Source: Takakia lepidozioides (lineage: Eukaryota; Plantae; Bryophyta). From it: a stretch of DNA of 64,000 nt. Where the stretch lies: positions 18,476,001-18,540,000 of the forward strand of contig CM060733.1 of assembly GCA_030704615.1 (NCBI GenBank). Direction: 5' to 3'. Below the pieces are notes generated by a model. It worked only from the letters and a program-made list of their open reading frames with translations, ran no database searches and had not been told where the DNA came from. Shown here piece after piece: positions 7,350 to 62,017 of the stretch; within the stretch, counting starts at the first letter, position 1; each line of letters opens with the position of its first letter. The position numbers were made by a program, and so were the translations under genes.

Positions 7350-7533
7350 AGGCATTCTCATCACTTTATATGATCTGATTGTACAGTTTTCTGCCGACAC
7401 CAATGACAAGCCTGCCCCTGCAACAAGAAATCACACATATACCCTCCCACCACTCACTTACCTAGATTGTTATTCATTGTAGTATTCTCTCTCTTTGCCA
7501 TCCTTGTAAATGTTTTGCTGTTTATTGAGCAGG

Positions 7534-9920
7534 TGTAGTGTGAATGCAGGGGGTAAAAATTCAAGTTTTTGTTTGGCATCAGGTTTCGGCACTACTACAA
7601 AGGGAGTGCCCTTCGTGCTAATGAAGGGGAGGAATTGTCCATAACTTGAGGTAATTCCATGGAAAGACTATGCTATTGATCTGCCAAGAACAAAATATGG
7701 CTAAGTTATGACATGCACCTTTTCATCCCTAGGATGAATGATTTTCATCCATGATGTTGAACCCTAGAAGCAGGATGTGAAATTCGAAGGGGAAGAGTGC
7801 GTGTATCTTTTCGCAGCTGCTGCAGTGGTGTTGGCAGCACAAGATATCTGAGAAAGTTCCACCTACGCAAAGGGTATCAGCTTGCTTTTAAGAGAAACGT
7901 TAAGAGCTCCTGCTTGGCTTTCTGTGCAAGAAGAAGCGGTGCCGCCTTCTTCGTAAGCAATGATCAAACCTGAGGGATCAGGTTTGTGATAAGGGCGGTG
8001 CACCACTGCTGTCGCCATTGTCTTGATGAGCACATTAATGAGGAGATGGAGCGGCTCAGCAGGTGTTGGGGGATGAGAAATGCAGGCTGGTGTGTATAGC
8101 GCCTCAGGTTGTCTGTGATCAAATCTTTGTAGCTGCTGTCTGTTTTTGAGCTTTAGGACCAGATCACTTTGTAAGGGAAGAGTGTAAGCATCTTTTCGCA
8201 GCTGCTGCAGTGGTGTTGGCAGTACAGCATATCTTAGGAAGTTCCACCTGCGCAAAGGGAATCAGCTTGCCTTAAAGAGCGACGTTAAGGGATCTGGCTT
8301 GGCATTCTGTGCAAGAGGAAGCGGTGCCGCCTTCTGGTGTGTATGGCGCTTAAGCTATCTATAATTAAGTTTTGTATCTGCTCTCTGTCTTAAGGGCTGT
8401 AGGACCAGATCACTTCATAGGGAAGAAATGCACATGTAGAAGGATAGGGTAGAGGTTGGCAGGCACAAGGATGTGCCAGCAGCTGAAGCAGAGCCGTCAT
8501 GCCTTAATGAGGACTGGAATCACGATAAGAAGAAACGTCGGAAATGGCTGACGAGGGAGAGGACAAGGTGCCTTCTTGACAGGCAGACCCACCGCTTCAA
8601 TGAGTATAAGACAGATAAGTTTGAAGAGTGGTCCCCCTTTTTTTGGTGACTTAGAAATCGCTTTGTGAAGTTTGGACTGTCTCTTGTATGTAGTAAGAGA
8701 CACTGACATGTGAGGAAGAAAAAGAGCTTTGGAAATGGAATGAAGACACTGGACTTCAAATCAGGATGGACTGGAGATGGATGCACCTGCTGTTACATTG
8801 TACAGTAGGAAAATGAATGGAAACAGGGTTGATTCGTTGCTGGGACAGAATGGTTGCTGCTGTTGTATTCTTGTTCTTTGTTTCAGCGTCATGAGCTTGT
8901 ACAAACAATCTAGCCTGGGATGTTGACACATTGCAGTCAATGTGGAACTAGCTTAGTAGGTAGAGGAAACCAGTGAGAGTTAGATAGAACTGTTTGGAAA
9001 CAACAAGAAGGGATGATGTGGATGGGGCAGAAAAACCAACATCTGTTTGGGTTTGGATCTGATTCTCAGGGTGCTCTCAGCATGTGAACCACTGAGGTTC
9101 ACAGTTGATGGGAAAAAGAGAGCTGTCAGGGTGTGTAAATTGAGACCTGTAGAAGGGTTGAGAGCTGTCTTGGGCAAATGGCTACACCTGGGAAAAGTGG
9201 AGTGTGAAGCATCTGTCATTGGCAAGAGAGGGACTGATAAAAGGGCTGATTATATCTTGTGTGACCAAGGTTGATTTCAATGCTGGGTGCACTGGATGCT
9301 TGGCTGAATGCGCATTGCATTGCATCATAGACATGCTACAGTGGAAAGAGTGAGGAACCTACTCACCCTGAAAGAAAGAGAGAGGGAGAGAGAAAAGGAC
9401 ATAAGGGAGAGAGCTGACCAGCAAGAGGGGATGGAGAGGAATGGATGATTGGGGCGGTAAGATAAAGAAAGCATGAACCCATGAAGGGCCAAACTGGTGG
9501 GCCTGCAACTCATGGCAGATCTGAGTTGCCTCCTTCTAAATCGTGATCTTATTACAAAGGGGATTCCACGTGTTGCTGACCAAGGGAGCTGCCCACAAGG
9601 GCAGTGGTCATCACTGACGTAGGGCTGGTTGCATCACTGAAGACAGCATGGTAACATGGCTGGTGCAGTGTACCAGGGAGAGGATGTCGTGTAGAAGTAG
9701 AACCACGGGTGAAAACAATACAGACTCCCCATCCATGTCTTCTCTTCCGCTGCGGCGTGGATGAGGATTGTGTGAACTCTGATCATGAAGGACCTGAGGG
9801 AAACCCACACCGAGTGACGATGGTTGGATCACTGAGAGGAGAGCTCCTTTCCTTCCCTCCAATTGACCTAGGGAGGAGCACAACTAGACTTGCACAGAAG
9901 GGGATTCACGCCCCTTCTTT
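7534..9920 (+). repeat. Family A LTR 1 (about 2.39 kb; ends CCCCTTCTTT with no terminal CA)
   Basis: Near-identical to 16513-18895 and 25487-27875; abuts the PBS directly. Confidence 0.95.
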
Positions 9921-9932
9921 TGGTATCAGAGC
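9921..9932 (+). promoter_or_regulatory. Primer binding site, tRNA-Met(i)
   Basis: TGGTATCAGAGC. Confidence 0.95.
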
Positions 9933-9989
9933 TGATGTTAAATCTTGATTTCTACTAGCTAGGGATCTTGACTGGTATTGGATGGTTTG

Positions 9990-10301
9990 ATGGCAGGAAG
10001 AGACCACACACTGATTCCTGATGAACCAAGCATTGGAGATGTGCTGATTTGCTTCAGCAGACGCACACCAAATGCACACGCAGACCCTTGTTTGTACTTC
10101 TTCAACCCTGCTTGGAGAATAGCGAATGGTGATTTATGTCTTAGAGTGATACATACTGGTGGAAGAACAACCATAGCACTTTGGATAAGAGAGTTAGGAA
10201 GGTGGGTGAAGATAAATACCATGGCACGAGAGGTGACATGGGGAGGTAGAGTAGAGATGTTGCGAAATGGACAGTGGGAGTGGTATAGAGGTCAACATTA
10301 A
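9990..10301 (+). CDS. Extra ORF upstream of gag (103 aa, Trp-rich, unknown function)
   Basis: ATG-initiated ORF filling most of the PBS-gag leader; intact in both copies. Confidence 0.45.
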   Translation: MAGRDHTLIPDEPSIGDVLICFSRRTPNAHADPCLYFFNPAWRIANGDLCLRVIHTGGRTTIALWIRELGRWVKINTMAREVTWGGRVEMLRNGQWEWYRGQH

Positions 10302-10372
10302 GGGAGTTGCGGGAAAATTAGAGTCAGAATTAGGTGTTGAAACAGTTTGAACTTTGACTAGAGAATAGAAGG

Positions 10373-12736
10373 ATGACCAGTCCAACCAGCATAGATGCGC
10401 CTTATCATGGTAGGAATAGTGAGGATGTAAATGACTGGCTGGAGAGAATTCAGATGGAGGCAGATGTCAGGGATTTGAATGAGGACAAAACTTTCAAGGT
10501 AGCAAGGCTCAACCTGAGAGCCAAGGCTGATGAATGGTACCGTAAACAAAACCCTAGACCAAACAACTGGGTGGACTTCAGGGCAGCAATTTCAGCCAAG
10601 TTTGGTATCGTTGACTTGGCAGAAATTAGGCTAAGAATGGATACCATTAAACAGGAGAGTAGACAAAGGGTTCAAACATACTTCGATAGGTTGAACCGGT
10701 TATTTATAAGAAGTGGGGCGTCTGATTTGGAACAGAGGCGTAGATTTGCAGCAGGTTTGAGACCAGAAATAGCAAGAGTAATGCTGGGCAGGCGCTTCCT
10801 TGATGTAGAGGAAGCACTTGACACAGCCATTGAGATTGAAAGGGGCCTGGGAAAGTTAGGGGAAATACCTCTAGAGCCATTGGAAGGAGATGATACAGAT
10901 GAGTCAGTTGTGTTTGTTAACCCTGTGGACAGAAGACTTGATCAGCTGAACACTACCCTACAGAAGTACTTTGATAGGGGACCAGTCATAGGAGAAAGCT
11001 CGGGATCTAGAACACCACCTCGTGTTCGCCTTTGTAATGTTTGTCACAAAGAAGGTCACATAGCTGCATATTGTCCTGAAGGAAGAACCCCAGCTAAGTG
11101 TGACAAATGTCACCGGTTCGGGCATTCCACGGAAATGTGTGGTGTGAGATGCAACTTTTGCAAGCTACTCGGGCATACGGAGAGTGAGTGCAGTAGAAAA
11201 CTCGACCAAACTATGATGGGAACTCCGGGAACTAACTTTGTAGACGTGTTCTATGATGATGAGGATGATGTACTCGCAGAGATGACAGATCTGATGTCAC
11301 GAAATAGTATCAATGAAGTCAGACTTCCAAGGACACGCATACCTGTCCAGAGTCCGATTGTTGAACCTACAGGGTCACCAGAAAGGAATAGTGAGAGCAG
11401 TGAACAGCCAAGCAAGACCAAGAGTGAAATCTACCCAAAGAACAATTTCAAGAATGCTATAGAAGGAGGTACGAAATCCAGAATCTTGAACCACTTCTAC
11501 AAAGGGAGAATATCGTTGTCGCCCATGGACCTGATCATGACTGTGCCCGGAGAGCTAGACAAATTGAAAGGGCTGGTCAAAGTGGTGGAAAGAGCAATGG
11601 TCCAACAAAGGGAGACAACTCACAGTGTAGAAGTTGTGAAGGATGTACCAAGGCCTTTGTACTCAGCACACGCTGAGCCCACGATCTCGTATGCTTATAC
11701 TGGTAAGGTTAAAGCGCTTCATGTAATGATTACAATGGGAGATTACCAAGTATTAGGCCAGATTGACACTGGTGCCATGCTTTCTGTAATATCAGCTAGT
11801 ACAGTCAGGGATCTTGGTTTGATGGGATCTGTCATTACTAGTAAGGATGTGAATTACAGAGTAGCCTCAGGTGCTCTTGAGACTGCAATGGGCAGACTTG
11901 AGGACATCAAGGTCAAAGTAGGAGAACTGACCAATCGTTTGTCCTTTATGGTGGTGAACACGGATACATATCACATGCTGCTGGGATTAGACTTTCTCAA
12001 AAAGTTTGGCGCTGTAGTGGACACCGAAGCTGAAACAATTCGCGTACGCTATGGGCCAGGAAAGGATTTTGCTCACTTCCCTTTGCACACCATCAATTAT
12101 AATGAGCCTGCAGTTACCAAAACAGCCTACCATAGAGGGGTCGAGAGTAGAATGAGATATGCAAGCAGTACGTCAGCAGGTAATGTCCTAACCCTGACGT
12201 CAGATGAACAGTACCTAGGCTTGTGGGAGAAGAAAAGAAAACCAGAGGAAGAATATGAGGACACGGAGGAAGCATCCTCAGGTTCTGACACCTCTAAATC
12301 TGATAAAGATGAGGAGATGGGAGGCTCTGAGGAGAGTAAGGAGGTAGAAACAGCACTGAGGGATGTTGAGGAAATAATAGACGATGTCAACCTAGGGGAG
12401 GACTTGTTCGAGGACCAAGGGATGTCTGAACTCCTTCAGGAAGAGACCCATAAGAGCATGGCTGCTGCCATAATACAGGAAGCTTACCAGAAAGCTTGGA
12501 ATGGTGAACTAGGGAACAACAACCTAGAAATAGAGGATGACTTCCATGATTGGAATCAGGTTGTCACACAAGAGGAACGACAGAGAATGGCTAACTCTGT
12601 AAGCCAGGTGGAGGGAAAGAATTGGGAACCCAGTCAAGAGGAAGAAATGGAGAGTCGTTGGAGAAGTCTGAAATCCAGACTGCACATCAACCCAGAACTG
12701 GCCCCAGAACATAGGATAGAGCTGAGCAAGAGCTGA
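10373..12736 (+). CDS. gag: Gag-protease polyprotein (capsid, three CCHC knuckles, aspartic protease, acidic linker)
   Basis: CNVCHKEGHIAAYC, CDKCHRFGHSTEMC, CNFCKLLGHTESEC; IDTGA...LLGLDFL. Confidence 0.95.
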   Translation: MTSPTSIDAPYHGRNSEDVNDWLERIQMEADVRDLNEDKTFKVARLNLRAKADEWYRKQNPRPNNWVDFRAAISAKFGIVDLAEIRLRMDTIKQESRQRVQTYFDRLNRLFIRSGASDLEQRRRFAAGLRPEIARVMLGRRFLDVEEALDTAIEIERGLGKLGEIPLEPLEGDDTDESVVFVNPVDRRLDQLNTTLQKYFDRGPVIGESSGSRTPPRVRLCNVCHKEGHIAAYCPEGRTPAKCDKCHRFGHSTEMCGVRCNFCKLLGHTESECSRKLDQTMMGTPGTNFVDVFYDDEDDVLAEMTDLMSRNSINEVRLPRTRIPVQSPIVEPTGSPERNSESSEQPSKTKSEIYPKNNFKNAIEGGTKSRILNHFYKGRISLSPMDLIMTVPGELDKLKGLVKVVERAMVQQRETTHSVEVVKDVPRPLYSAHAEPTISYAYTGKVKALHVMITMGDYQVLGQIDTGAMLSVISASTVRDLGLMGSVITSKDVNYRVASGALETAMGRLEDIKVKVGELTNRLSFMVVNTDTYHMLLGLDFLKKFGAVVDTEAETIRVRYGPGKDFAHFPLHTINYNEPAVTKTAYHRGVESRMRYASSTSAGNVLTLTSDEQYLGLWEKKRKPEEEYEDTEEASSGSDTSKSDKDEEMGGSEESKEVETALRDVEEIIDDVNLGEDLFEDQGMSELLQEETHKSMAAAIIQEAYQKAWNGELGNNNLEIEDDFHDWNQVVTQEERQRMANSVSQVEGKNWEPSQEEEMESRWRSLKSRLHINPELAPEHRIELSKS

Positions 12737-15700
12737 AAGCAAACCAGGAATGCTTTGCTCTTAGCAAGGCTGACTTGGGATACTGCAGTGAGGTAGAACA
12801 CACAATTGACACACAAGGTTTTCCCCCTTGCAGAAGTCGTCCCAGCCGCCTATCAGAATGGGAGGAAGACGAGGTCCAAGGACAAATTGAGACTTTGATC
12901 TCACAAGGCAAGATGAGAGAGAGTAGTTCAGAATGGTCGTGTCCAGTTACCCTTCCACCAAAAAAGGATGGATCCAAGCGGTTTTGTGGTGATTTTAGGC
13001 CAGTAAACCGTTTAACCAGAAGGGACTCTTACCCTATGCCATTAATTCAGGATGTTTTAAACCAGTTGGGGAAAGCCAAGTGGTTTTCTGCGCTGGATTT
13101 ACAATCTGGTTTTTGGCAGATCAAAATGGACGACCGAGACATAGGCAAAACAGCAGTGATCACAAAGAAGGGATTGTATGAATGGCTAGTCATGCCATTC
13201 GGGCTAAAAAATGCCACTGCTACCTTTCAGAGAACAATGAATAGAGTGCTCAAGGAAGAAATCAAAGATTGCGCTAAGGTTTTTGTAGATGACGTCAATA
13301 TCCATAGCAAGGACTGGGGAGATCACGTGGGACATATAAAGAGAGTATTGAGCAAGGTTAGAAAGGCCAATCTTAGGCTCAATCCGGACAAGTGTTACTT
13401 TGCCAACTTACAGTTGGTATTCCTTGGGCATGTGATCTCTGAAGAGGGAACGTGGCCTGATCCAGATAAGATAGCTGCTATTGAAAGGTTTCCCTTGCCC
13501 AAAAACCACACTGCTCTCAAAAGCTACTTAGGCATGACAGGGTACTATAGGCCCTATGTCAAAGGATATGCTGGAGTGGCAGTACCCTTGTTCACTCTAA
13601 CCAAGAAGGATGTGAAGTTTATCTGGAGTGCAGAGGCACAAAACGCCTTTTCTGCCTTACAGGTGAAGTTGGTAACTGCTCCCATCCTGGCAAGACCAGA
13701 TTTCTCAAGACCGTTCGTCTTGGATGTTGACTGGTCCATCAAAGGAGTAGGGGCAGTCTTGTCACAAAAGGAGTATAAAAAGGAGAGGGTCATTGCATAC
13801 GCCAGTAAGGTACTATCTGATGCTCAGCGCAAATATCACCCTATGGAAGGTGAATGCTATGCCCTGGTGTGGGGAGTATTACACTTTCGGCAGTACCTGT
13901 ATGGAACCCCTTTTGTAATCAGGACTGATCACAAACCACTGGAGTGGTTGGCAACGGTAAGTGACGCATATGGACGCAGGGGTAGATGGATCATGATGTT
14001 ACAAGATTTTGAGTTTAAAATTGTTCACAGAGCAGGTGCTAGGCATGCTAACGTAGATGCACTAAGCAGGTATCCAGTGGGACCAGCTGAGGAAACCGAG
14101 GAAATCGAGGTATACTCTACTTCTCTGTACAGTCAGAAAAGAGAAGGGAGAAAGAGGGATGGAGCCTATCTTCTTAAGCTAGCTTGGGATAGGGGTGCCA
14201 TCAATGCTTCGTTATTTCAATTTAAGGAGGGGAAGGAGGAGTTGAGAGAAGAAGCTCATAGGCAAGTAGGGTATAGCAGTGAAAAAGGGGAGATGATTTG
14301 CAAAAGAGAAGAGTACTATGCATGTGTATGGGGCCTTTGGCACTTCAAGAAAATACTGTTGGGAAGTCATTTTTCTTTGGAAACAGATCTAGATCCATAT
14401 TGGTGGCTATACTCAGAGCACCACATAGGCATAGACTTACTTGGTGACTTTTCATTTGAGTTCGTTCCGGGCATAGTAAGATCTTCCACAGGTGGAATGT
14501 TGACCAAGGATCATGGCATATTGAAGGGAGAACTGAAACCAGGCATAATGCCAGATGGAGAAGGAAAGAGGGTGACTTTTGCTGCACAGACTTTTGCTAC
14601 AAAAAAAAAACAAGGAAAGGGTATTGATCAATCAAGCTCTGTCAATCTGGTGAGGGAGGGTATTTGGAAGGATAAGGGTGCAGGAAGGATAGAGGCTACT
14701 GCAATCAGCAACAAGGAAAGGGAGCATCTGATGCCCTCTTGTCCCACCATCCATGTGATTACCCGAGGATCTCGTGCTCGTGATAAGGAGCTAAGCGAGG
14801 TACATCCAGCCTGTGAACTTGTGGAAGAGAGATCGAACAATGAAAAGGGAAGCTTGCAAGAGACACCATTCCTTCAACACTTGACAAGCACTCCAACAAC
14901 AAGAAGAACGCGGGTGACTTCCTCATCAGAATGCCCAGCCAAGGAAAACATGGGGGGTGAGTGTTCCACCAAGACGTTTTGTTCTTCAGACAGTGATGGA
15001 ACAAGTGGTTCAGAACAAGACACTTCTTCTTGCAACAAGATTGATGAAGGGGACTGGGTACCATGGACCGCACCCACCAAAGCTACTCAGATGTCATTAT
15101 TACGTGAGGCTGAAAGATGGGGGAAAAGCTCTCTCATCAGCTCTGACCATCATACAGCAGCTGTTAAGGAGGAAAGGCAACCTGATGTGCTTGATGATGT
15201 GGAAGTCATGCACCTCTTATGTTTTGGAGAAGTCAATGACTACCTGACAAAAGAGGAGAGCAAGAGAGCCAAGAGGCGGGCAAGGCAGTACTCCTATCTC
15301 AAAGGTGAGGTCTACTTTGATGGAAGGGTAGTTCCACCAAGAACTGACAGAGGGGCAATAATCACTGAAGTACATGAAGCCACTGGCCACTTTGGAGTCA
15401 GAAGAACACAAGAGGAGATATGCCGACGTTATTTCTGGCATGATAGAACAAAACTCATCAGGCAAGTACTCAAGGGCTGTGGTAAATGTCAGATGGCCAA
15501 ACAGAACGGAGTGTTGCGCTCAGGTAGCTCAAAACTTCACAGCATTCCAGTAGTGGATCTGTTTTTCAGAGTTGCAATTGACACGGCAGGACCATTACCT
15601 ATAACCAGCAGGGGCAATCAGTACTTTCTGGTGGCAATCGATCACTTCTCAAAATGGATAGAAGCTGCACCAGTGGCAGATCATACAGCAGCCCTTGCTG

Positions 15701-16491
15701 CCCGCTTTCTTGAGGAAGAAGTAATTGACAGGTATAGCTGCCCACATACGTTGCTCACTGACAATGGCACAGAGTGGGGAGGTGAGTTTGAAGATACATG
15801 CCACGAATACGGTATAAAGAGGGAGCATAGCGCCCCCTACTGGCCTCAGTGTAACGGTATGGTGGAAAGGGTCATTAAGTCTCTCAAACAGAGCATCACC
15901 ACCCTAGGAGTTGGAAACGACACTGAGTGGGATCAGAATCTCTATAAGGCCCTGTTTGGTTACAGAATGGGTGTCCATGCTTCCACTGGATTCTCACCTT
16001 TTCAGGTACTTACTGGTAGAATTCCCAGGCTGGGAATTGACAACAGGTTGCATTTTCTTACAACACCAGTAAATTCTGATGGATCTGTAGCAGAGGTCAC
16101 ACTTATGATGCAGCAGAAAATCCAGCTTCTCACAGAGATGAAGGCAAAGCTACGAAAGAGTGTGAAGAAAGGGCAGCGTCAACAGGCAAGAGATTATGAA
16201 AGAAGGCATCAAACAGGGCATACCTACTGCACGTTGATGGAGAACAGCAAGGTAATGATGTTGAGGCCTGGAAAGAGGTCTTCCATGACATCTCCATGGG
16301 AGGGACCCTATGACTTTTTGGGATACAAGGATGCAGGAAGCACAACCAAGACTGGAGAAGCTGCACGAAGATGCAGGTTGAGAGATGGAGCAGACAAGGA
16401 ATGGGTAAGAAGTAGGAGGGATTTAAAACCCTTCATACCACCAATAGGTGTTCAGCCGTTAAAGGTGGTCAGTGAGGACCCTGACACTTAA
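12715..16491 (+). CDS. pol: Pol: RT, RNase H, second degenerate RNase H, S/T-rich linker, integrase (GPY motif, no chromodomain)
   Basis: LDLQSGFWQ, MPFGLKNA, FVDD; DVDWS..E..TDH..DALSR; HHCC, IDTAGP/TDNG/GMVER, WEGPY. The frame is open from 12715, -1 relative to gag. Confidence 0.95.
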   Translation, partial: DRAEQELKANQECFALSKADLGYCSEVEHTIDTQGFPPCRSRPSRLSEWEEDEVQGQIETLISQGKMRESSSEWSCPVTLPPKKDGSKRFCGDFRPVNRLTRRDSYPMPLIQDVLNQLGKAKWFSALDLQSGFWQIKMDDRDIGKTAVITKKGLYEWLVMPFGLKNATATFQRTMNRVLKEEIKDCAKVFVDDVNIHSKDWGDHVGHIKRVLSKVRKANLRLNPDKCYFANLQLVFLGHVISEEGTWPDPDKIAAIERFPLPKNHTALKSYLGMTGYYRPYVKGYAGVAVPLFTLTKKDVKFIWSAEAQNAFSALQVKLVTAPILARPDFSRPFVLDVDWSIKGVGAVLSQKEYKKERVIAYASKVLSDAQRKYHPMEGECYALVWGVLHFRQYLYGTPFVIRTDHKPLEWLATVSDAYGRRGRWIMMLQDFEFKIVHRAGARHANVDALSRYPVGPAEETEEIEVYSTSLYSQKREGRKRDGAYLLKLAWDRGAINASLFQFKEGKEELREEAHRQVGYSSEKGEMICKREEYYACVWGLWHFKKILLGSHFSLETDLDPYWWLYSEHHIGIDLLGDFSFEFVPGIVRSSTGGMLTKDHGILKGELKPGIMPDGEGKRVTFAAQTFATKKKQGKGIDQSSSVNLVREGIWKDKGAGRIEATAISNKEREHLMPSCPTIHVITRGSRARDKELSEVHPACELVEERSNNEKGSLQETPFLQHLTSTPTTRRTRVTSSSECPAKENMGGECSTKTFCSSDSDGTSGSEQDTSSCNKIDEGDWVPWTAPTKATQMSLLREAERWGKSSLISSDHHTAAVKEERQPDVLDDVEVMHLLCFGEVNDYLTKEESKRAKRRARQYSYLKGEVYFDGRVVPPRTDRGAIITEVHEATGHFGVRRTQEEICRRYFWHDRTKLIRQVLKGCGKCQMAKQNGVLRSGSSKLHSIPVVDLFFRVAIDTAGPLPITSRGNQYFLVAIDHFSKWIEAAPVADHTAALAARFLEEEVIDRYSCPHTLLTDNGTEWGGEFEDTCHEYGIKREHSAPYWPQCNGMVERVIKSLKQSITTLGVGNDTEWDQNLYKALFGYRMGVHASTGFSPFQVLTGRIPRLGIDNRLHFLTTPVNSDGSVAEVTLMMQQKIQLLTEMKAKLRKSVKKGQRQQARDYERRHQTGHTYCTLMENSKVMMLRPGKRSSMTSPWEGPYDFLGYKDAGSTTKTGEAARRCRLRDGADKEWVRSRRDLKPFIPPIGVQPLKVVSEDPDT

Positions 16492-16521
16492 AAAAAGGAG
16501 ACACACTACATATGTAGTGTG
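16490..16521 (+). promoter_or_regulatory. Polypurine tract followed by a 20-bp att-like palindrome
   Basis: AAAAAAAGGAGA (16490-16501), then CACACTACATATGTAGTGTG (16502-16521). Confidence 0.9.
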
Positions 16522-18895
16522 AATGCAGGGGGTAAAAATTCAAGTTTTTGTTTGGCATCAGGTTTCGGCACTACTACAAAGGGAGTGCCCTTCGTGCTAA
16601 TGAAGGGGAGGAATTGTCCATAACTTGAGGTAATTCCATGGAAAGACTATGCTATTGATCTGCCAAGAACAAAATATGGCTAAGTTATGACATGCACCTT
16701 TTTCATCCCTAGGATGAATGATTTTCATCCATGATGTTGAACCCTAGAAGCAGGATGTGAAATTCGAAGGGGAAGAGTGCGTGTATCTTTTCGCAGCTGC
16801 TGCAGTGGTGTTGGCAGCACAGGATATCTGAGAAAGTTCCACCTACGCAAAGGGTATCAGCTTGCTTTTAAGAGAAATGTTAAGAGCTCCTGCTTGGCTT
16901 TCTGTGCAAGAAGAAGCGGTGCCGCCTTCTTCGTAAGCAATGATCAAACCTGAGGGATCAGGTTTGTGATAAGGGCGGTGCACCACTGCTGTCGCCATTG
17001 TCTTGATGAGCACATTAATGAGGAGATGGAGCGGCTCAGCAGGTGTTGGGGGATGAGAAATGCAGGCTGGTGTGTATAGCGCCTCAGGTTGTCTGTGATC
17101 AAATCTTGTAGCTGCTGTCTGTTTTTGAGCTTTAGGACCAGATCACTTTGTAAGGGAATGTAAGCATCTTTTGCAGCTGCTGCAGTGGTGTTGGCAGTAC
17201 AGCATATCTTAGGAAGTTCACCTGCGCAAAGGGAATCAGCTTGCCTTAAAGAGCGACGTTAAGGGATCTGGCTTGGCATTCTGTGCAAGAGGAAGCGGTG
17301 CCGCCTTCTGGTGTGTATGGCGCTTAAGCTATCTATAATTAAGTTTTGTATCTGCTCTCTGTCTTAAGGGCTGTAGGACCAGATCACTTCATAGGGAAGA
17401 AATGCACATGTAGAAGGATAGGGTAGAGGTTGGCAGGCACAAGGATGTGCCAGCAGCTGAAGCAGAGCCGTCATGCCTTAATGAGGACTGGAATCACGAT
17501 AAGAAGAAACGTCGGAAATGGCTGACGAGGGAGAGGACAAGGTGCCTTCTTGACAGGCAGACCCACCGCTTCAATGAGTATAAGACAGATAAGTTTGAAG
17601 AGTGGTCCCCCTTTTTTTGGTGACTTAGAAATCGCTTTGTGAAGTTTGGACTGTCTCTTGTATGTAGTAAGAGACACTGACATGTGAGGAAGAAAAAGAG
17701 CTTTGGAAATGGAATGAAGACACTGGACTTCAAATCAGGATGGACTGGAGATGGATGCACCTGCTGTTACATTGTACAGTAGGAAAAATGAATGGAAACA
17801 GGGTTGATTCGTTGCTGGGACAGAATGGTTGCTGCTGTTGTATTCTTGTTCTTTGTTTCAGCGTCATGAGCTTGTACAAACAATCTAGCCTGGGATGTTG
17901 ACACATTGCAGTCAATGTGGAACTAGCTTAGTAGGTAGAGGAAACCAGTGAGAGTTAGATAGAACTGTTTGGAAACAACAAGAAGGGATGATGTGGATGG
18001 GGCAGAAAAACCAACATCTGTTTGGGTTTGGATCTGATTCTCAGGGTGCTCTCAGCATGTGAACCACTGAGGTTCACAGTTGATGGGAAAAAGAGAGCTG
18101 TCAGGGTGTGTAAATTGAGACCTGTAGAAGGGTTGAGAGCTGTCTTGGGCAAATGGCTACACCTGGGAAAAGTGGAGTGTGAAGCATCTGTCATTGGCAA
18201 GAGAGGGACTGATAAAAGGGCTGATTATATCTTGTGTGACCAAGGTTGATTTCAATGCTGGGTGCACTGGATGCTTGGCTGAATGCGCATTGCATTGCAT
18301 CATAGACATGCTACAGTGGAAAGAGTGAGGAACCTACTCACCCTGAAAGAAAGAGAGAGGGAGAGAGAAAAGGACATAAGGGAGAGAGCTGACCAGCAAG
18401 AGGGGATGGAGAGGAATGGATGATTGGGGCGGTAAGATAAAGAAAGCATGAACCCATGAAGGGCCAAACTGGTGGGCCTGCAACTCATGGCAGATCTGAG
18501 TTGCCTCCTTCCAAATCGTGATCTTATTACAAAGGGGATTCCACGTGTTGCTGACCAAGGGAGCTGCCCACAAGGGCAGTGGTCATCACTGACGTAGGGC
18601 TGGTTGCATCACTGAAGACAGCATGGTAACATGGCTGGTGCAGTGTACCAGGGAGAGGATGTCGTGTAGAAGTAGAACCACGGGTGAAAACAATACAGAC
18701 TCCCCATCCATGTCTTCTCTTCCGCTGCGGCGTGGATGAGGATTGTGTGAACTCTGATCATGAAGGACCTGAGGGAAACCCACACCGAGTGACGATGGTT
18801 GGATCACTGAGAGGAGAGCTCCTTTCCTTCCCTCCAATTGACCTAGGGAGGAGCACAACTAGACTTGCACAGAAGGGGATTCACGCCCCTTCTTT
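16513..18895 (+). repeat. Family A LTR 2 (shared middle LTR)
   Basis: Preceded by PPT+CACACTACATA and followed directly by the PBS at 18896-18907. Confidence 0.95.
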
Positions 18896-18964
18896 TGGTA
18901 TCAGAGCTGATGTTAAATCTTGATTTCTACTAGCTAGGGATCTTGACTGGTATTGGATGGTTTG

Positions 18965-19276
18965 ATGGCAGGAAGAGACCACACACTGATTCCTGATGAA
19001 CCAAGCATTGGAGATGTGCTGATTTGCTTCAGCAGACGCACACCAAATGCACACGCAGACCCTTGTTTGTACTTCTTCAACCCTGCTTGGAGAATAGCGA
19101 ATGGTGATTTATGTCTTAGAGTGATACATACTGGTGGAAGAACAACCATAGCACTTTGGATAAGAGAGTTAGGAAGGTGGGTGAAGATAAATACCATGGC
19201 ACGAGAGGTGACATGGGGAGGTAGAGTAGAGATGTTGCGAAATGGACAGTGGGAGTGGTATAGAGGTCAACATTAA
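18965..19276 (+). CDS. Extra upstream ORF, copy 2
   Basis: Same translation as 9990-10301. Confidence 0.45.
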   Translation: MAGRDHTLIPDEPSIGDVLICFSRRTPNAHADPCLYFFNPAWRIANGDLCLRVIHTGGRTTIALWIRELGRWVKINTMAREVTWGGRVEMLRNGQWEWYRGQH

Positions 19277-19347
19277 GGGAGTTGCGGGAAAATTAGAGTC
19301 AGAATTAGGTGTTGAAACAGTTTGAACTTTGACTAGAGAATAGAAGG

Positions 19348-21711
19348 ATGACCAGTCCAACCAGCATAGATGCGCCTTATCATGGTAGGAATAGTGAGGA
19401 TGTAAATGACTGGCTGGAGAGAATTCAGATGGAGGCAGATGTCAGGGATTTGAATGAGGACAAAACTTTCAAGGTAGCAAGGCTCAACCTGAGAGCCAAG
19501 GCTGATGAATGGTACCGTAAACAAAACCCTAGACCAAACAACTGGGTGGACTTCAGGGCAGCAATTTCAGCCAAGTTTGGTATCGTTGACTTGGCAGAAA
19601 TTAGGCTAAGAATGGATACCATTAAACAGGAGAGTAGACAAAGGGTTCAAACATACTTCGATAGGTTGAACCGGTTATTTATAAGAAGTGGGGCGTCTGA
19701 TTTGGAACAGAGGCGTAGATTTGCAGCAGGTTTGAGACCAGAAATAGCAAGAGTAATGCTGGGCAGGCGCTTCCTTGATGTAGAGGAAGCACTTGACACA
19801 GCCATTGAGATTGAAAGGGGCCTGGGAAAGTTAGGGGAAATACCTCTAGAGCCATTGGAAGGAGATGATACAGATGAGTCAGTTGTGTTTGTTAACCCTG
19901 TGGACAGAAGACTTGATCAGCTGAACACTACCCTACAGAAGTACTTTGATAGGGGACCAGTCATAGGAGAAAGCTCGGGATCTAGAACACCACCTCGTGT
20001 TCGCCTTTGTAATGTTTGTCACAAAGAAGGTCACATAGCTGCATATTGTCCTGAAGGAAGAACCCCAGCTAAGTGTGACAAATGTCACCGGTTCGGGCAT
20101 TCCACGGAAATGTGTGGTGTGAGATGCAACTTTTGCAAGCTACTCGGGCATACGGAGAGTGAGTGCAGTAGAAAACTCGACCAAACTATGATGGGAACTC
20201 CGGGAACTAACTTTGTAGACGTGTTCTATGATGATGAGGATGATGTACTCGCAGAGATGACAGATCTGATGTCACGAAATAGTATCAATGAAGTCAGACT
20301 TCCAAGGACACGCATACCTGTCCAGAGTCCGATTGTTGAACCTACAGGGTCACCAGAAAGGAATAGTGAGAGCAGTGAACAGCCAAGCAAGACCAAGAGT
20401 GAAATCTACCCAAAGAACAATTTCAAGAATGCTATAGAAGGAGGTACGAAATCCAGAATCTTGAACCACTTCTACAAAGGGAGAATATCGTTGTCGCCCA
20501 TGGACCTGATCATGACTGTGCCCGGAGAGCTAGACAAATTGAAAGGGCTGGTCAAAGTGGTGGAAAGAGCAATGGTCCAACAAAGGGAGACAACTCACAG
20601 TGTAGAAGTTGTGAAGGATGTACCAAGGCCTTTGTACTCAGCACACGCTGAGCCCACGATCTCGTATGCTTATACTGGTAAGGTTAAAGCGCTTCATGTA
20701 ATGATTACAATGGGAGATTACCAAGTATTAGGCCAGATTGACACTGGTGCCATGCTTTCTGTAATATCAGCTAGTACAGTCAGGGATCTTGGTTTGATGG
20801 GATCTGTCATTACTAGTAAGGATGTGAATTACAGAGTAGCCTCAGGTGCTCTTGAGACTGCAATGGGCAGACTTGAGGACATCAAGGTCAAAGTAGGAGA
20901 ACTGACCAATCGTTTGTCCTTTATGGTGGTGAACACGGATACATATCACATGCTGCTGGGATTAGACTTTCTCAAAAAGTTTGGCGCTGTAGTGGACACC
21001 GAAGCTGAAACAATTCGCGTACGCTATGGGCCAGGAAAGGATTTTGCTCACTTCCCTTTGCACACCATCAATTATAATGAGCCTGCAGTTACCAAAACAG
21101 CCTACCATAGAGGGGTCGAGAGTAGAATGAGATATGCAAGCAGTACGTCAGCAGGTAATGTCCTAACCCTGACGTCAGATGAACAGTACCTAGGCTTGTG
21201 GGAGAAGAAAAGAAAACCAGAGGAAGAATATGAGGACACGGAGGAAGCATCCTCAGGTTCTGACACCTCTAAATCTGATAAAGATGAGGAGATGGGAGGC
21301 TCTGAGGAGAGTAAGGAGGTAGAAACAGCACTGAGGGATGTTGAGGAAATAATAGACGATGTCAACCTAGGGGAGGACTTGTTCGAGGACCAAGGGATGT
21401 CTGAACTCCTTCAGGAAGAGACCCATAAGAGCATGGCTGCTGCCATAATACAGGAAGCTTACCAGAAAGCTTGGAATGGTGAACTAGGGAACAACAACCT
21501 AGAAATAGAGGATGACTTCCATGATTGGAATCAGGTTGTCACACAAGAGGAACGACAGAGAATGGCTAACTCTGTAAGCCAGGTGGAGGGAAAGAATTGG
21601 GAACCCAGTCAAGAGGAAGAAATGGAGAGTCGTTGGAGAAGTCTGAAATCCAGACTGCACATCAACCCAGAACTGGCCCCAGAACATAGGATAGAGCTGA
21701 GCAAGAGCTGA
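19348..21711 (+). CDS. gag: Gag-protease polyprotein, copy 2
   Basis: 787 aa, same translation as copy 1. Confidence 0.95.
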   Translation: MTSPTSIDAPYHGRNSEDVNDWLERIQMEADVRDLNEDKTFKVARLNLRAKADEWYRKQNPRPNNWVDFRAAISAKFGIVDLAEIRLRMDTIKQESRQRVQTYFDRLNRLFIRSGASDLEQRRRFAAGLRPEIARVMLGRRFLDVEEALDTAIEIERGLGKLGEIPLEPLEGDDTDESVVFVNPVDRRLDQLNTTLQKYFDRGPVIGESSGSRTPPRVRLCNVCHKEGHIAAYCPEGRTPAKCDKCHRFGHSTEMCGVRCNFCKLLGHTESECSRKLDQTMMGTPGTNFVDVFYDDEDDVLAEMTDLMSRNSINEVRLPRTRIPVQSPIVEPTGSPERNSESSEQPSKTKSEIYPKNNFKNAIEGGTKSRILNHFYKGRISLSPMDLIMTVPGELDKLKGLVKVVERAMVQQRETTHSVEVVKDVPRPLYSAHAEPTISYAYTGKVKALHVMITMGDYQVLGQIDTGAMLSVISASTVRDLGLMGSVITSKDVNYRVASGALETAMGRLEDIKVKVGELTNRLSFMVVNTDTYHMLLGLDFLKKFGAVVDTEAETIRVRYGPGKDFAHFPLHTINYNEPAVTKTAYHRGVESRMRYASSTSAGNVLTLTSDEQYLGLWEKKRKPEEEYEDTEEASSGSDTSKSDKDEEMGGSEESKEVETALRDVEEIIDDVNLGEDLFEDQGMSELLQEETHKSMAAAIIQEAYQKAWNGELGNNNLEIEDDFHDWNQVVTQEERQRMANSVSQVEGKNWEPSQEEEMESRWRSLKSRLHINPELAPEHRIELSKS

Positions 21712-24700
21712 AAGCAAACCAGGAATGCTTTGCTCTTAGCAAGGCTGACTTGGGATACTGCAGTGAGGTAGAACACACAATTGACACACAAGGTTTTCCC
21801 CCTTGCAGAAGTCGTCCCAGCCGCCTATCAGAATGGGAGGAAGACGAGGTCCAAGGACAAATTGAGACTTTGATCTCACAAGGCAAGATGAGAGAGAGTA
21901 GTTCAGAATGGTCGTGTCCAGTTACCCTTCCACCAAAAAAGGATGGATCCAAGCGGTTTTGTGGTGATTTTAGGCCAGTAAACCGTTTACCAGAAGGGAC
22001 TCTTACCCTATGCCATTAATTCAGGATGTTTTAAACCAGTTGGGGAAAGCCAAGTGGTTTTCTGCGCTGGATTTACAATCTGGTTTTTGGCAGATCAAAA
22101 TGGACGACCGAGACATAGGCAAAACAGCAGTGATCACAAAGAAGGGATTGTATGAATGGCTAGTCATGCCATTCGGGCTAAAAAATGCCACTGCTACCTT
22201 TCAGAGAACAATGAATAGAGTGCTCAAGGAAGAAATCAAAGATTGCGCTAAGGTTTTTGTAGATGACGTCAATATCCATAGCAAGGACTGGGGAGATCAC
22301 GTGGGACATATAAAGAGAGTATTGAGCAAGGTTAGAAAGGCCAATCTTAGGCTCAATCCGGACAAGTGTTACTTTGCCAACTTACAGTTGGTATTCCTTG
22401 GGCATGTGATCTCTGAAGAGGGAACGTGGCCTGATCCAGATAAGATAGCTGCTATTGAAAGGTTTCCCTTGCCCAAAAACCACACTGCTCTCAAAAGCTA
22501 CTTAGGCATGACAGGGTACTATAGGCCCTATGTCAAAGGATATGCTGGAGTGGCAGTACCCTTGTTCACTCTAACCAAGAAGGATGTGAAGTTTATCTGG
22601 AGTGCAGAGGCACAAAACGCCTTTTCTGCCTTACAGGTGAAGTTGGTAACTGCTCCCATCCTGGCAAGACCAGATTTCTCAAGACCGTTCGTCTTGGATG
22701 TTGACTGGTCCATCAAAGGAGTAGGGGCAGTCTTGTCACAAAAGGAGTATAAAAAGGAGAGGGTCATTGCATACGCCAGTAAGGTACTATCTGATGCTCA
22801 GCGCAAATATCACCCTATGGAAGGTGAATGCTATGCCCTGGTGTGGGGAGTATTACACTTTCGGCAGTACCTGTATGGAACCCCTTTTGTAATCAGGACT
22901 GATCACAAACCACTGGAGTGGTTGGCAACGGTAAGTGACGCATATGGACGCAGGGGTAGATGGATCATGATGTTACAAGATTTTGAGTTTAAAATTGTTC
23001 ACAGAGCAGGTGCTAGGCATGCTAACGTAGATGCACTAAGCAGGTATCCAGTGGGACCAGCTGAGGAAACCGAGGAAATCGAGGTATACTCTACTTCTCT
23101 GTACAGTCAGAAAAGAGAAGGGAGAAAGAGGGATGGAGCCTATCTTCTTAAGCTAGCTTGGGATAGGGGTGCCATCAATGCTTCGTTATTTCAATTTAAG
23201 GAGGGGAAGGAGGAGTTGAGAGAAGAAGCTCATAGGCAAGTAGGGTATAGCAGTGAAAAAGGGGAGATGATTTGCAAAAGAGAAGAGTACTATGCATGTG
23301 TATGGGGCCTTTGGCACTTCAAGAAAATACTGTTGGGAAGTCATTTTTCTTTGGAAACAGATCTAGATCCATATTGGTGGCTATACTCAGAGCACCACAT
23401 AGGCATAGACTTACTTGGTGACTTTTCATTTGAGTTCGTTCCGGGCATAGTAAGATCTTCCACAGGTGGAATGTTGACCAAGGATCATGGCATATTGAAG
23501 GGAGAACTGAAACCAGGCATAATGCCAGATGGAGAAGGAAAGAGGGTGACTTTTGCTGCACAGACTTTTGCTACAAAAAAAAAACAAGGAAAGGGTATTG
23601 ATCAATCAAGCTCTGTCAATCTGGTGAGGGAGGGTATTTGGAAGGATAAGGGTGCAGGAAGGATAGAGGCTACTGCAATCAGCAACAAGGAAAGGGAGCA
23701 TCTGATGCCCTCTTGTCCCACCATCCATGTGATTACCCGAGGATCTCGTGCTCGTGATAAGGAGCTAAGCGAGGTACATCCAGCCTGTGAACTTGTGGAA
23801 GAGAGATCGAACAATGAAAAGGGAAGCTTGCAAGAGACACCATTCCTTCAACACTTGACAAGCACTCCAACAACAAGAAGAACGCGGGTGACTTCCTCAT
23901 CAGAATGCCCAGCCAAGGAAAACATGGGGGGTGAGTGTTCCACCAAGACGTTTTGTTCTTCAGACAGTGATGGAACAAGTGGTTCAGAACAAGACACTTC
24001 TTCTTGCAACAAGATTGATGAAGGGGACTGGGTACCATGGACCGCACCCACCAAAGCTACTCAGATGTCATTATTACGTGAGGCTGAAAGATGGGGGAAA
24101 AGCTCTCTCATCAGCTCTGACCATCATACAGCAGCTGTTAAGGAGGAAAGGCAACCTGATGTGCTTGATGATGTGGAAGTCATGCACCTCTTATGTTTTG
24201 GAGAAGTCAATGACTACCTGACAAAAGAGGAGAGCAAGAGAGCCAAGAGGCGGGCAAGGCAGTACTCCTATCTCAAAGGTGAGGTCTACTTTGATGGAAG
24301 GGTAGTTCCACCAAGAACTGACAGAGGGGCAATAATCACTGAAGTACATGAAGCCACTGGCCACTTTGGAGTCAGAAGAACACAAGAGGAGATATGCCGA
24401 CGTTATTTCTGGCATGATAGAACAAAACTCATCAGGCAAGTACTCAAGGGCTGTGGTAAATGTCAGATGGCCAAACAGAACGGAGTGTTGCGCTCAGGTA
24501 GCTCAAAACTTCACAGCATTCCAGTAGTGGATCTGTTTTTCAGAGTTGCAATTGACACGGCAGGACCATTACCTATAACCAGCAGGGGCAATCAGTACTT
24601 TCTGGTGGCAATCGATCACTTCTCAAAATGGATAGAAGCTGCACCAGTGGCAGATCATACAGCAGCCCTTGCTGCCCGCTTTCTTGAGGAAGAAGTAATT

Positions 24701-25465
24701 GACAGGTATAGCTGCCCACATACGTTGCTCACTGACAATGGCACAGAGTGGGGAGGTGAGTTTGAAGATACATGCCACGAATACGGTATAAAGAGGGAGC
24801 ATAGCGCCCCCTACTGGCCTCAGTGTAACGGTATGGTGGAAAGGGTCATTAAGTCTCTCAAACAGAGCATCACCACCCTAGGAGTTGGAAACGACACTGA
24901 GTGGGATCAGAATCTCTATAAGGCCCTGTTTGGTTACAGAATGGGTGTCCATGCTTCCACTGGATTCTCACCTTTTCAGGTACTTACTGGTAGAATTCCC
25001 AGGCTGGGAATTGACAACAGGTTGCATTTTCTTACAACACCAGTAAATTCTGATGGATCTGTAGCAGAGGTCACACTTATGATGCAGCAGAAAATCCAGC
25101 TTCTCACAGAGATGAAGGCAAAGCTACGAAAGAGTGTGAAGAAAGGGCAGCGTCAACAGGCAAGAGATTATGAAAGAAGGCATCAAACAGGGCATACCTA
25201 CTGCACGTTGATGGAGAACAGCAAGGTAATGATGTTGAGGCCTGGAAAGAGGTCTTCCATGACATCTCCATGGGAGGGACCCTATGACTTTTTGGGATAC
25301 AAGGATGCAGGAAGCACAACCAAGACTGGAGAAGCTGCACGAAGATGCAGGTTGAGAGATGGAGCAGACAAGGAATGGGTAAGAAGTAGGAGGGATTTAA
25401 AACCCTTCATACCACCAATAGGTGTTCAGCCGTTAAAGGTGGTCAGTGAGGACCCTGACACTTAA
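21690..25465 (+). pseudogene. pol: Pol copy 2 with a 1-bp deletion near 21988 (real or a sequencing error)
   Basis: CGTTTACCAGA vs CGTTTAACCAGA in copy 1; otherwise the same protein. Confidence 0.9.
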
Positions 25466-25495
25466 AAAAAGGAGACACACTACATATGTAGTGTG
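25464..25495 (+). promoter_or_regulatory. PPT plus 20-bp att-like palindrome, copy 2
   Basis: AAAAAAAGGAGA CACACTACATATGTAGTGTG. Confidence 0.9.
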
Positions 25496-27885
25496 AATGC
25501 AGGGGGTAAAAATTCAAGTTTTTGTTTGGCATCAGGTTTCGGCACTACTACAAAGGGAGTGCCCTTCGTGCTAATGAAGGGGAGGAATTGTCCATAACTT
25601 GAGGTAATTCCATGGAAAGACTATGCTATTGATCTGCCAAGAACAAAATATGGCTAAGTTATGACATGCACCTTTTTCATCCCTAGGATGAATGATTTTC
25701 ATCCATGATGTTGAACCCTAGAAGCAGGATGTGAAATTCGAAGGGGAAGAGTGCGTGTATCTTTTCGCAGCTGCTGCAGTGGTGTTGGCAGCACAGATAT
25801 CTGAGAAAGTTCCACCTACGCAAAGGGTATCAGCTTGCTTTTAAGAAAAACGTTAAGAGCTCCTGCTTGGCTTTCTGTGCAAGAAGAAGCGGTGCCGCCT
25901 TCTTCGTAAGCAATGATCAAACCTGAGGGATCAGGTTTGTGATAAGGGCGGTGCACCACTGCTGTCGCCATTGTCTTGATGAGCACATTAATGAGGAGAT
26001 GGAGCGGCTCAGCAGGTGTTGGGGGATGAGAAATGCAGGCTGGTGTGTATAGCGCCTCAGGTTGTCTGTGATCAAATCTTTGTAGCTGCTGTCTATTTTT
26101 GAGCTTTAGGACCAGATCACTTTGTAAGGGAAGAGTGTAAGCATCTTTTCGCAGCTGCTGCAGTGGTGTTGGCAGTACAGCATATCTTAGGAAGTTCCAC
26201 CTGCGCAAAGGGAATCAGCTTGCCTTAAAGAGCGACGTTAAGGGATCTGGCTTGGCATTCTGTGCAAGAGGAAGCGGTGCCACCTTCTGGTGTGTATGGC
26301 GCTTAAGCTATCTATAATTAAGTTTTGTATCTGCTCTCTGTCTTAAGGGCTGTAGGACCAGATCACTTCATAGGGAAGAAATGCACATGTAGAAGGATAG
26401 GGTAGAGGTTGGCAGGCACAAGGATGTGCCAGCAGCTGAAGCAGAGCCGTCATGCCTTAATGAGGACTGGAATCACGATAAGAAGAAACGTCGGAAATGG
26501 CTGACGAGGGAGAGGACAAGGTGCCTTCTTGACAGGCAGACCCACCGCTTCAATGAGTATAAGACAGATAAGTTTGAAGAGTGGTCCCCCTTTTTTTGGT
26601 GACTTAGAAATCGCTTTGTGAAGTTTGGACTGTCTCTTGTATGTAGTAAGAGACACTGACATGTGAGGAAGAAAAAGAGCTTTGGAAATGGAATGAAGAC
26701 ACTGGACTTCAAATCAGGATGGACTGGAGATGGATGCACCTGCTGTTACATTGTACAGTAGGAAAAATGAATGGAAACAGGGTTGATTCGTTGCTGGGAC
26801 AGAATGGTTGCTGCTGTTGTATTCTTGTTCTTTGTTTCAGCGTCATGAGCTTGTACAAACAATCTAGCCTGGGATGTTGACACATTGCAGTCAATGTGGA
26901 ACTAGCTTAGTAGGTAGAGGAAACCAGTGAGAGTTAGATAGAACTGTTTGGAAACAACAAGAAGGGATGATGTGGATGGGGCAGAAAAACCAACATCTGT
27001 TTGGGTTTGGATCTGATTCTCAGGGTGCTCTCAGCATGTGAACCACTGAGGTTCACAGTTGATGGGAAAAAGAGAGCTGTCAGGGTGTGTAAATTGAGAC
27101 CTGTAGAAGGGTGGAGAGCTGTCTTGGGCAAATGGCTACACCTGGGAAAAGTGGAGTGTGAAGCATCTGTCATTGGCAAGAGAGGGACTGATAAAAGGGC
27201 TGATTATATCTTGTGTGACCAAGGTTGATTTCAATGCTGGGTGCACTGGATGCTTGGCTGAATGCGCATTGCATTGCATCATAGACATGCTACAGTGGAA
27301 AGAGTGAGGAACCTACTCACCCTGAAAGAAAGAGAGAGGGAGAGAGAAAAGGACATAAGGGAGAGAGCTGACCAGCAAGAGGGGATGGAGAGGAATGGAT
27401 GATTGGGGCGGTAAGATAAAGAAAGCATGAACCCATGAAGGGCCAAACTGGTGGGCCTGCAACTCATGGCAGATCTGAGTTGCCTCCTTCTAAATCGTGA
27501 TCTTATTACAAAGGGGCTTCCACGTGTTGCTGACCAAGGGAGCTGCCCACAAGGGCAGTGGTCATCACTGACGTAGGGCTGGTTGCATCACTGAAGACAA
27601 CATGGTAACATGGCTGGTGCAGTGTACCAGGGAGAGGATGTCGTGTAGAAGTAGAACCACGGGTGAAAACAATACAGACTCCCCCATCCATGTCTTCTCT
27701 TCCGCTGCGGCGTGGATGAGGATTGTGTGAACTCTGATCATGAAGGACCTGAGGGAAACCCACACCGAGTGACGATGGTTGGATCACTGAGAGGAGAGCT
27801 CCTTTCCTTCCCTCCAATTGACCTGGGGAGGAGCACAACTAGACTTGCACAGAAGGGGATTCACGCCCCTTCTTTTCACACTACA
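25487..27885 (+). repeat. Family A LTR 3 plus a terminal 10-nt extension TCACACTACA
   Basis: LTR body ends at 27875, followed by T+CACACTACA and then the TSD. Confidence 0.95.
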
Positions 27886-27909
27886 CAGGGTTCTCTTCAT
27901 TACTATCTG

Positions 27910-38200: not shown

Positions 38201-38231
38201 GGAGGACGTCGTCTTTCGTCTGCACCGAGGA
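32300..38231 (+). mobile_element. Large Mutator-like DNA element, interrupted by a CACTA element and truncated at the LINE
   Basis: Terminus resembles 50590-50870; contains a transposase pseudogene. Confidence 0.55.
33024..34202. mobile_element. Non-autonomous CACTA (En/Spm) element
   Basis: CACTACAGGAAA...TTTGCTGTAGTG termini, 3-bp TSD ACT on both sides, GTCGCAA/TTGCGAC subterminal repeats. Confidence 0.95.
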
Positions 38232-61890: not shown

Positions 61891-62017
61891 ACCCTTGCCA
61901 GCATGATTGCATGTTGAAACGCAAGAGCAGTCACGGGCTGCACCAGTGTTACCAACGAGTATGGAGCACTTGTCGCGAGGCCAAGCATATATGACCAGGG
62001 CGGGCGGACAAGGGGAA

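Follow-up and report, generated by a model that had tools for sequence, protein, structure and literature searches.

In the genome of the bryophyte Takakia lepidozioides, we identified a Ty3/gypsy long terminal repeat (LTR) retrotransposon whose Pol polyprotein carries, between the reverse transcriptase (RT)-RNase H part and the integrase (IN), a second RNase H-like domain, herein designated RH2, that we consider to be catalytically dead and folded, with a likely structural or protein-binding role, at a probability of about 0.6. The element is contained in a stretch of 64,000 nucleotides of contig CM060733.1 (GenBank assembly GCA_030704615.1, positions 18,476,001 to 18,540,000 of the forward strand), hereafter called the window, from the first base of which all nucleotide positions are counted; amino acid (aa) positions are those of Pol. 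Since two of the four catalytic carboxylates are lost from RH2, and since the changes found among its genomic copies are mostly synonymous, a dead yet folded domain is predicted. Judged by its sequence, RH2 is paralogous to, and colinear with, the preceding gypsy-type RNase H (RH1), and is a degenerate derivative rather than a working member of that family. The feature is real, and it is a variation on the theme of dual RNase H, in which an RNase H of the element's own type was added, the original domain is intact and the distal copy is degenerate.

Identification of a second RNase H-like domain in Pol

The sequence 14161-14472 translates, within the open pol frame of 1258 residues (12715-16491), to GAYLLKLAWDRGAINASLFQ...FEFVPG, altogether 104 residues. 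An original prediction, made from the letters of the window, had placed here an open-frame, colinear paralogue directly behind the normal RNase H, and the homology searches performed in this study agree well with that proposal. BLASTP of the two segments aligned RH1 and RH2 over 106 columns with 30% identity (E 3e-11), while hhalign of RH2 against a profile of the RH1 domains of the clade to which the element belongs gave a probability of 97.8% (E 1.2e-12) over 96 columns, with 38% identity to the consensus. Using the profile of 18 clade RH1 domains, RH2 was detected at aa 485-583 with 33.6 bits (E 1.4e-10). The Pfam family RT_RNaseH, one of the profiles by which the domain was expected to be recognizable, matched two stretches within Pol, the one in RH1 extending over the full profile (profile positions 1-105 at aa 329-432, E 1.2e-38). 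Because RT_RNaseH and RT_RNaseH_2 are the only Pfam families that match RH2, all others giving no match at E up to 10, there is no sign of an archaeal or cellular type of RNase H. In a protein language-model feature search with the single sequence of RH2, RT_RNaseH clusters made up 28 of the 30 nearest (score 0.92), and a phmmer search of RH2 against the sequences of PDB gave no match at E up to 10.

The same domain was predicted to recur at 23135-23446, where the second internal unit of the element indeed encodes the identical 104 residues. Furthermore, the junction between RH1 and RH2 is bridged by two contigs from other public sequencing runs, X3 (13501-14429, 929 bases in length and differing at 1 position) and X6 (13998-14766, 772 bases in length), and thus the arrangement is no artefact of the present assembly.

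Catalytic residues, surface charge and predicted fold

The catalytic set of RH1 consists of D339, E380, D405 and D448, whereas A490, E533, D558 and G594 occupy the corresponding positions of RH2. The replacement of the first catalytic Asp by Ala (D339 aligned to A490), as well as the retention of the Glu (E533) and of the middle Asp (D558), had been correctly predicted; D339 and E380 are invariant across a 12-row alignment. The final DALSR motif, however, which had been described as missing, is present in the degenerate form GGMLTK: the sequence TGGMLTK of RH2 aligns with NA(D/N)AL(S/T)R of the relatives P0005 and P0010, and since it stands opposite NADALSR, D448 corresponds to G594. BLASTP reaches query residue 116, and because the alignments run through the last motif, RH2 extends about 40 bases past 14472, to about 14511. 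Among the 49 RH1 columns that are invariant in the clade, 19 are kept in RH2, mainly those of the hydrophobic core plus the Glu, and the other 30 are altered. The isoelectric point of RH2 is 5.6 (13 K+R vs 18 D+E), in contrast to 9.3-9.6 for RT, RH1 and IN, and this acidic nature speaks against a role in gripping nucleic acids.

The structure of RH2 was modelled with AlphaFold2 using a 33-row alignment, in which RH2 was on top and the remaining rows were RH1 homologues. The model (mean predicted local distance difference test score [pLDDT] 71.7, predicted template modelling score 0.66) includes a core at model residues 8-110, mostly with pLDDT of 70-95 and with the order b1-b2-b3-aA-b4-aB-aD-b5. 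The best PDB matches of this model by Foldseek were Ty3 RT (4ol8, E 1.9e-5) and cauliflower mosaic virus (CaMV) RT (8r0s). After comparison by VIA-align, the Z score was highest for CaMV RT (8r0s, Z 12.8) and Ty3 RT (4ol8_B, chain 350-461, Z 12.5, root-mean-square deviation 2.5 over 100 residues), followed by the connection domains of murine leukemia virus and foamy virus (Z 10-11.4), cellular RNase H1 (Z up to 9.8) and the HIV-1 connection (Z 8.5). RH2 is thus predicted from the model to have the RNase H fold, as the original prediction had implied.

Sequence variation among genomic copies

For analysis of the variation among copies of the element, contigs at least 80% alike were matched to pol from four public runs, yielding 259, 425, 67 and 55 contigs, respectively. 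Within the 312 bases of 14161-14472, a total of 27 variable places were counted at a share of at least 10%, with no indels; one contig over 14161-14468 carried 58 differences and one gap. When the changes were taken singly, 19 were synonymous and 8 were not, while the spectrum of the changes seen here would predict 7.65 synonymous ones (binomial p 7e-6), and 20 of the 27 places are located at third codon positions (p 2e-5).

For the whole pol, the comparison was made with the 40 best-supported differences, 461 further differences being outside this set. Among these 40, synonymous and non-synonymous changes numbered 4 and 2 in RT, 1 and 0 in the linker between RH1 and RH2, 3 and 0 in RH2, 4 and 7 in the spacer that follows RH2, and 14 and 5 in IN, while RH1 was not represented. 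In-frame indels of 3 and 18 bases were all found in the spacer, among the differences listed. The spacer behind RH2, which is under the same frame constraint, looks relaxed. The silent excess in RH2, which the keeping of the frame alone would not give, together with this relaxed spacer indicates that RH2 is both translated and under constraint as a protein. As for the original proposal of a structural or dimer-mimicking domain, the retained non-catalytic role fits this excess of silent changes among the copies, while its dimer-mimicking part belongs to one of the alternative explanations considered below.

Origin and distribution of RH2

When RH2 was compared by BLASTP with 79 gypsy RNase H domains, its top 18 matches were all the 18 RH1 domains of its own clade (43.5-57.8 bits), the next match being at 36.6 bits. 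In both of the trees constructed (38 and 80 rows), RH2 was grouped with the gypsy RH1 domains of its own clade at a support of 100/99, as anticipated in the original prediction. A phmmer search of aa 463-872 against 1.84 billion representatives gave a single match, that of RH2 to the RH1 of a clade member with 39% identity. From these sequence relationships, RH2 most likely derives from the element's own clade.

Within this clade, the source of RH2 might be a related element, from which it was gained by recombination or template switching, instead of the element's own RH1. This origin is in line with the similarity scores, in which the own RH1 ranks only 17 of the 18 clade members (44.3 bits vs 57.8 bits for P0005), and with the 38-row tree, in which RH2 joins 12 relatives apart from its own RH1 (97/94), and we regard it as quite possible, at somewhat less than even odds. 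On the other hand, the placement of RH2 as sister to its own RH1 costs just 1.7 log-likelihood units (p 0.43 in the approximately unbiased [AU] test), the branch of RH2 is so long (3.6-4.5 changes per column in the 38- and 80-row trees) that its placement within the clade is unreliable, and the relatives themselves lack RH2; its placement on the stem of the clade gave p 0.48 in the same test. The trees and scores do not distinguish an internal duplication from recombination that involved a related element. The originally proposed internal duplication is therefore upheld as far as a gypsy-type paralogue grouping with its own clade is concerned, while copying of the own RH1 is one of two possible routes.

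In order to survey the distribution, we scanned with the clade RNase H profile a total of 83 proteins, including P0001 (the Pol of the Takakia element), P0005, 80 Pol matches and the other gypsy Pol of the window, and found two RNase H domains only in P0001. The RH1-IN linker of 10 clade relatives is about 170 residues in length, and about 370 residues separate RH1 from the integrase part in the Takakia element, including the 24-residue linker, RH2 and the 230-residue spacer. No RH2-bearing homologue of aa 440-640 was found among 419 candidates of 691-2202 aa, and none of 55 pattern matches in metagenome contigs was confirmed as an RH2-bearing relative. The names recorded for cluster members of the relatives read 'hypothetical protein' throughout. 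In the two other gypsy elements of the window, the integrase follows directly after a single RNase H, and RH2 is absent.

The closest relatives (P0005-P0021) carry between RNase H and integrase a Cys/His-rich block of about 55 residues, G.FSV..G.ES.W.G.RR...H..CCFGINH...HQLFM.DV, which belongs to no listed Pfam family and is absent from the Takakia element, where RH2 and the spacer sit instead. In the alignment by MAFFT, this block of the relatives' RH-IN linker (..H..CCFGINH..HQLFM.DV..) was set opposite the RH2 motifs. Its identification as a remnant of RH2 is unsupported, because hmmsearch gave scores below 0 bits and hhalign gave probabilities of 0.4-1.7%; in shuffle tests, z was above 3 for 1 of 11 relatives (P0012, which had been pre-picked by eye) and p was above 0.05 for 9 of the 11.

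Evaluation of the alternative explanations

Under the explanation we favour, an RNase H of the own clade would have been copied into the RH-IN junction, either through duplication in tandem or when the template was switched from one co-packaged RNA to another, related one. The copied domain would then have shed its catalysis and its basic surface, with fast evolution, and may finally have settled under constraint as a non-enzymatic module, for which a structural or protein-binding role in Pol is likely.

Several observations weigh against this explanation. With respect to homology, RH2 alone reached only 22.9 bits (E 1e-4) in the Pfam RT_RNaseH search, over profile positions 49-88 only, below the Pfam cut-off of 24.8 bits. 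As to the origin, neither the grouping of RH2 with the chromovirus-like group (p 0.14, 10.3 log-likelihood units worse) nor that with the next gypsy group (p 0.20, 8.1 units worse) was rejected by the AU test. The confident structural model leans on the alignment of RH1 homologues, for AlphaFold without the alignment gave a pLDDT of 38.5, which is uninformative, and even in the alignment-based model the pLDDT remains below 50 in the C-terminal helix region, which begins near aa 590. In the selection test, variation among paralogues was pooled and read from short contigs, the 27 places are not independent lineages, and after merging of two linked changes in codon 499, which together are non-synonymous, the ratio of synonymous to non-synonymous changes becomes 18 vs 9. 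In addition, RH2 is present in none of the 10 clade relatives spanning RH1 to IN, indicating that the clade replicates without RH2.

Some of these observations would be expected if RH2 were a functionless relic of a duplication, kept as an open frame solely because the downstream integrase would be severed by any stop or frameshift: two catalytic residues are gone, the branch is very long, the close relatives are without RH2, and the fold prediction from the single sequence fails. The constraint on the frame, however, does not by itself explain 19 synonymous changes at 27 places, and in the adjoining spacer, where the frame must equally be kept, 4 changes are synonymous, 7 are non-synonymous and in-frame indels also occur; as the hydrophobic core pattern is also kept in RH2, we consider a relic to be rather improbable. 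Still less credible, and close to negligible in our estimate, is the idea that RH2 is itself an active nuclease whose catalytic centre has been rebuilt, where D492, an Asp two residues past the lost one at A490, might be employed together with the retained E533 and D558. Both the first and the last Asp are lost from RH2, 30 of the 49 clade-invariant RH1 positions are altered and the net charge is acidic; to our knowledge, no RNase H investigated so far can do without the first Asp, and its replacement abolishes RNase H activity.

A different function for a dead domain may be considered in view of Ty3 RT, which is described as a substrate-induced asymmetric homodimer with the subunits giving different active sites (PMC3851607, PMC11363490). 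RH2 could then substitute, within the same polypeptide, for the second subunit of an RT dimer like that of Ty3, or serve as a docking domain linked to the unusual formation of the LTR ends, given that the model of RH2 shares the predicted fold of the RNase H domain of Ty3 RT and that the element has unusual LTR ends, but the acidic RH2 is unlike a domain that holds a hybrid, and the co-occurrence of RH2 and the odd ends rests on a single family; we judge this to be unlikely, though slightly less so than the relic. No more credit than to the relic is given to the full scheme, in which duplication of the own RNase H produced an RT with two RNase H folds, the dead distal copy would be a second-subunit surrogate or docking module needed for the unusual end formation, and the right-end integrase site would be encoded next to the polypurine tract, in the manner of a circle junction. 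Taken together, a dead, folded domain with a structural or protein-binding role is the explanation of RH2 that we prefer.

Organization of the tandem array and the LTR ends

By self-BLAST, a single Ty3/gypsy element was found in tandem form, LTR-internal-LTR-internal-LTR, at 7534-27885, with its repeat units 99.7% alike (7534-18896 vs 16513-27876). The LTR is 2.39 kb in length, and CAGG flanks the array at both ends. The locations of the individual features are summarized in Table 1.

Table 1. Location of the features of the Takakia Ty3/gypsy element within the window
Feature	Position	Strand	Evidence and remarks
5' LTR	7534..9921	+	Begins TGTAGTGTG right after the flank CAGG; self-BLAST, sequence
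Primer binding site TGGTATCAGAGC	9921..9932	+	Sequence
gag-protease open reading frame (ORF), 792 aa	10358..12736	+	Pfam gag-asp_proteas E 3.3e-11; three CCHC-like knuckles and aspartyl protease
pol ORF, 1258 aa (P0001)	12715..16491	+	Frame -1 vs gag-protease; order RT, RH1, RH2, spacer, integrase
Reverse transcriptase core, aa 82-241	12958..13437	+	Pfam RVT_1 E 3.1e-30
RH1, intact gypsy-type RNase H, aa 333-459	13711..14091	+	D339, E380, D405, D448; Pfam RT_RNaseH
RH1-RH2 linker, 24 residues (ETEEIEV...RKRDG)	14092..14163	+	
RH2, degenerate gypsy-type RNase H paralogue, aa 484-599	14164..14511	+	A490, E533, D558, G594; acidic
Spacer, aa 601-830	14515..15204	+	No Pfam match; 69% of the residues disorder-promoting
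Integrase zinc-binding domain and catalytic core, aa 874-1043	15334..15843	+	Integrase_H2C2 aa 874-930 E 1.3e-13; rve aa 956-1043 E 3e-12
Polypurine tract AAAAAAAGGAGA, then CACACTACATA	16490..16512	+	Sequence
Middle LTR	16513..18900	+	Self-BLAST
RH2 of second internal unit	23138..23485	+	Protein identical to first-unit RH2
3' LTR	25487..27885	+	Sole LTR ending in the inverted terminal 9-mer CACACTACA (27877-27885), then the flank CAGG

The primer binding site is presumably a match to initiator Met tRNA. The pol of the second unit is the same as that of the first unit except for a single-base gap, by which the frame is broken in the N-terminal part of RT. The pol frame opens (12712-12736) after a TAG 19 bases upstream of the gag-protease stop, one base back, and no slippery heptamer of the X XXY YYZ type was seen in the overlap between gag-protease and pol, GATAGAGCTGAGCAAGAGC. 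Every LTR contains a direct repeat of 161 bases, 87% alike, at a spacing of 385 bases (7790-7950 and 8175-8335 in the 5' LTR).

With respect to the LTR ends and their junctions (7530-7542, 9910-9932, 16490-16521, 25476-25495 and 27870-27889), the 5' and middle LTRs abut the primer binding site directly (...CCCCTTCTTT followed by TGGTATCAGAGC), without a terminal inverted repeat. Only the final LTR ends with ...CTTCTTTT-CACACTACA, of which CACACTACA is complementary, in inverted orientation, to the LTR start TGTAGTGTG. The same 9-mer CACACTACA plus TA follows the polypurine tract in front of each downstream LTR, and this polypurine-tract-side 9-mer plus TA, joined to the LTR start, forms the perfect 20-base palindrome CACACTACATATGTAGTGTG, present in 2 copies in the window vs 0 expected. 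The palindrome is the sequence that a two-LTR circle junction would read. The textbook scheme of strand transfer does not yield the right end of the last LTR, and integration from a site resembling a circle junction is our guess.

Outside the array, positions 1-295 of the window are 100% identical to 11254-11548 within the gag of the element, representing either an extra copy truncated at the edge of the window or a fragment. Other retroelements in the window include, on the minus strand, an integrase-like stretch as well as RT fragments (30893-31573, 38175-40611), a chromodomain-bearing gypsy element with LTRs of 466 bases (40492-47178, + strand) and a further gypsy element (about 51619-64000, + strand) with RT, RNase H and integrase at 59442-61263, both of these gypsy elements carrying a single RNase H.

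Comparison with hitherto known dual-RNase H systems

According to the papers cited here, the RNase H gained by Tat, Archon, Chronos, retroviruses, lokiretroviruses and Odin belongs to a cellular or archaeal type and carries the full catalytic set, while the RT-proximal gypsy-type domain degenerates to a tether (PMC4408406, PMC5348765, PMC9040795). Neumann et al. state that, of the plant LTR retrotransposons, Tat alone has two RNase H domains (PMC6317226), and Ustyantsev et al. weighed for Tat the possibility that the original domain had been duplicated, but judged acquisition to be more parsimonious. In a phrase search of the literature, which covered titles and the starts of abstracts and had most subscription journals outside its coverage, no LTR retrotransposon with a duplicated gypsy-type RNase H was found among the papers listed.

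The Takakia element resembles plant Tat and oomycete Archon/Chronos (gRNH-aRNH) in the presence of two RNase H-fold domains per Pol, one with catalytic residues lost, and it resembles the Ogre and Retand lineages in the location of the extra RNase H between the original RNase H and the integrase (PMC4408406, PMC5348765, PMC6317226). In Tat, Archon and Chronos, however, the extra domain is an archaeal-type RNase H from outside with the full catalytic set, and it is the RT-proximal gypsy RNase H that degenerates, whereas in the Takakia element the extra domain is gypsy-type and degenerate, and the RT-proximal RH1 keeps D-E-D-D. Likewise, the tether or connection of retroviruses, lokiretroviruses and Odin is an inactive RNase H fold beside an active one in the same RT (PMC9040795), but in retroviruses the dead domain follows the polymerase and precedes the active RNase H, the active domain being foreign (PMC9040795), while RH2 of the Takakia element, predicted to be dead, comes after the active RH1. 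The RNase H domains of Ty3 and CaMV RT (4ol8, 8r0s), the best structural matches of the predicted RH2 model, are active single domains right after the thumb, while RH2 is a second copy, two carboxylates short.

The Takakia element would thus represent another route to a dual RNase H, in which an RNase H of its own kind was added, the original was left unharmed and the new copy turned into a selected pseudo-enzyme. RH2 shows that domain duplication within Pol does occur, and duplication of the own RNase H, if true, is the route that was once proposed, and later dropped, for retroviruses. Since the element family is abundant and young, with hundreds of contigs and LTRs 99.7% alike, material for biochemistry should exist, and RH2 lends itself to studying the contribution of an RNase H fold without catalysis to a reverse transcriptase or to a polyprotein.

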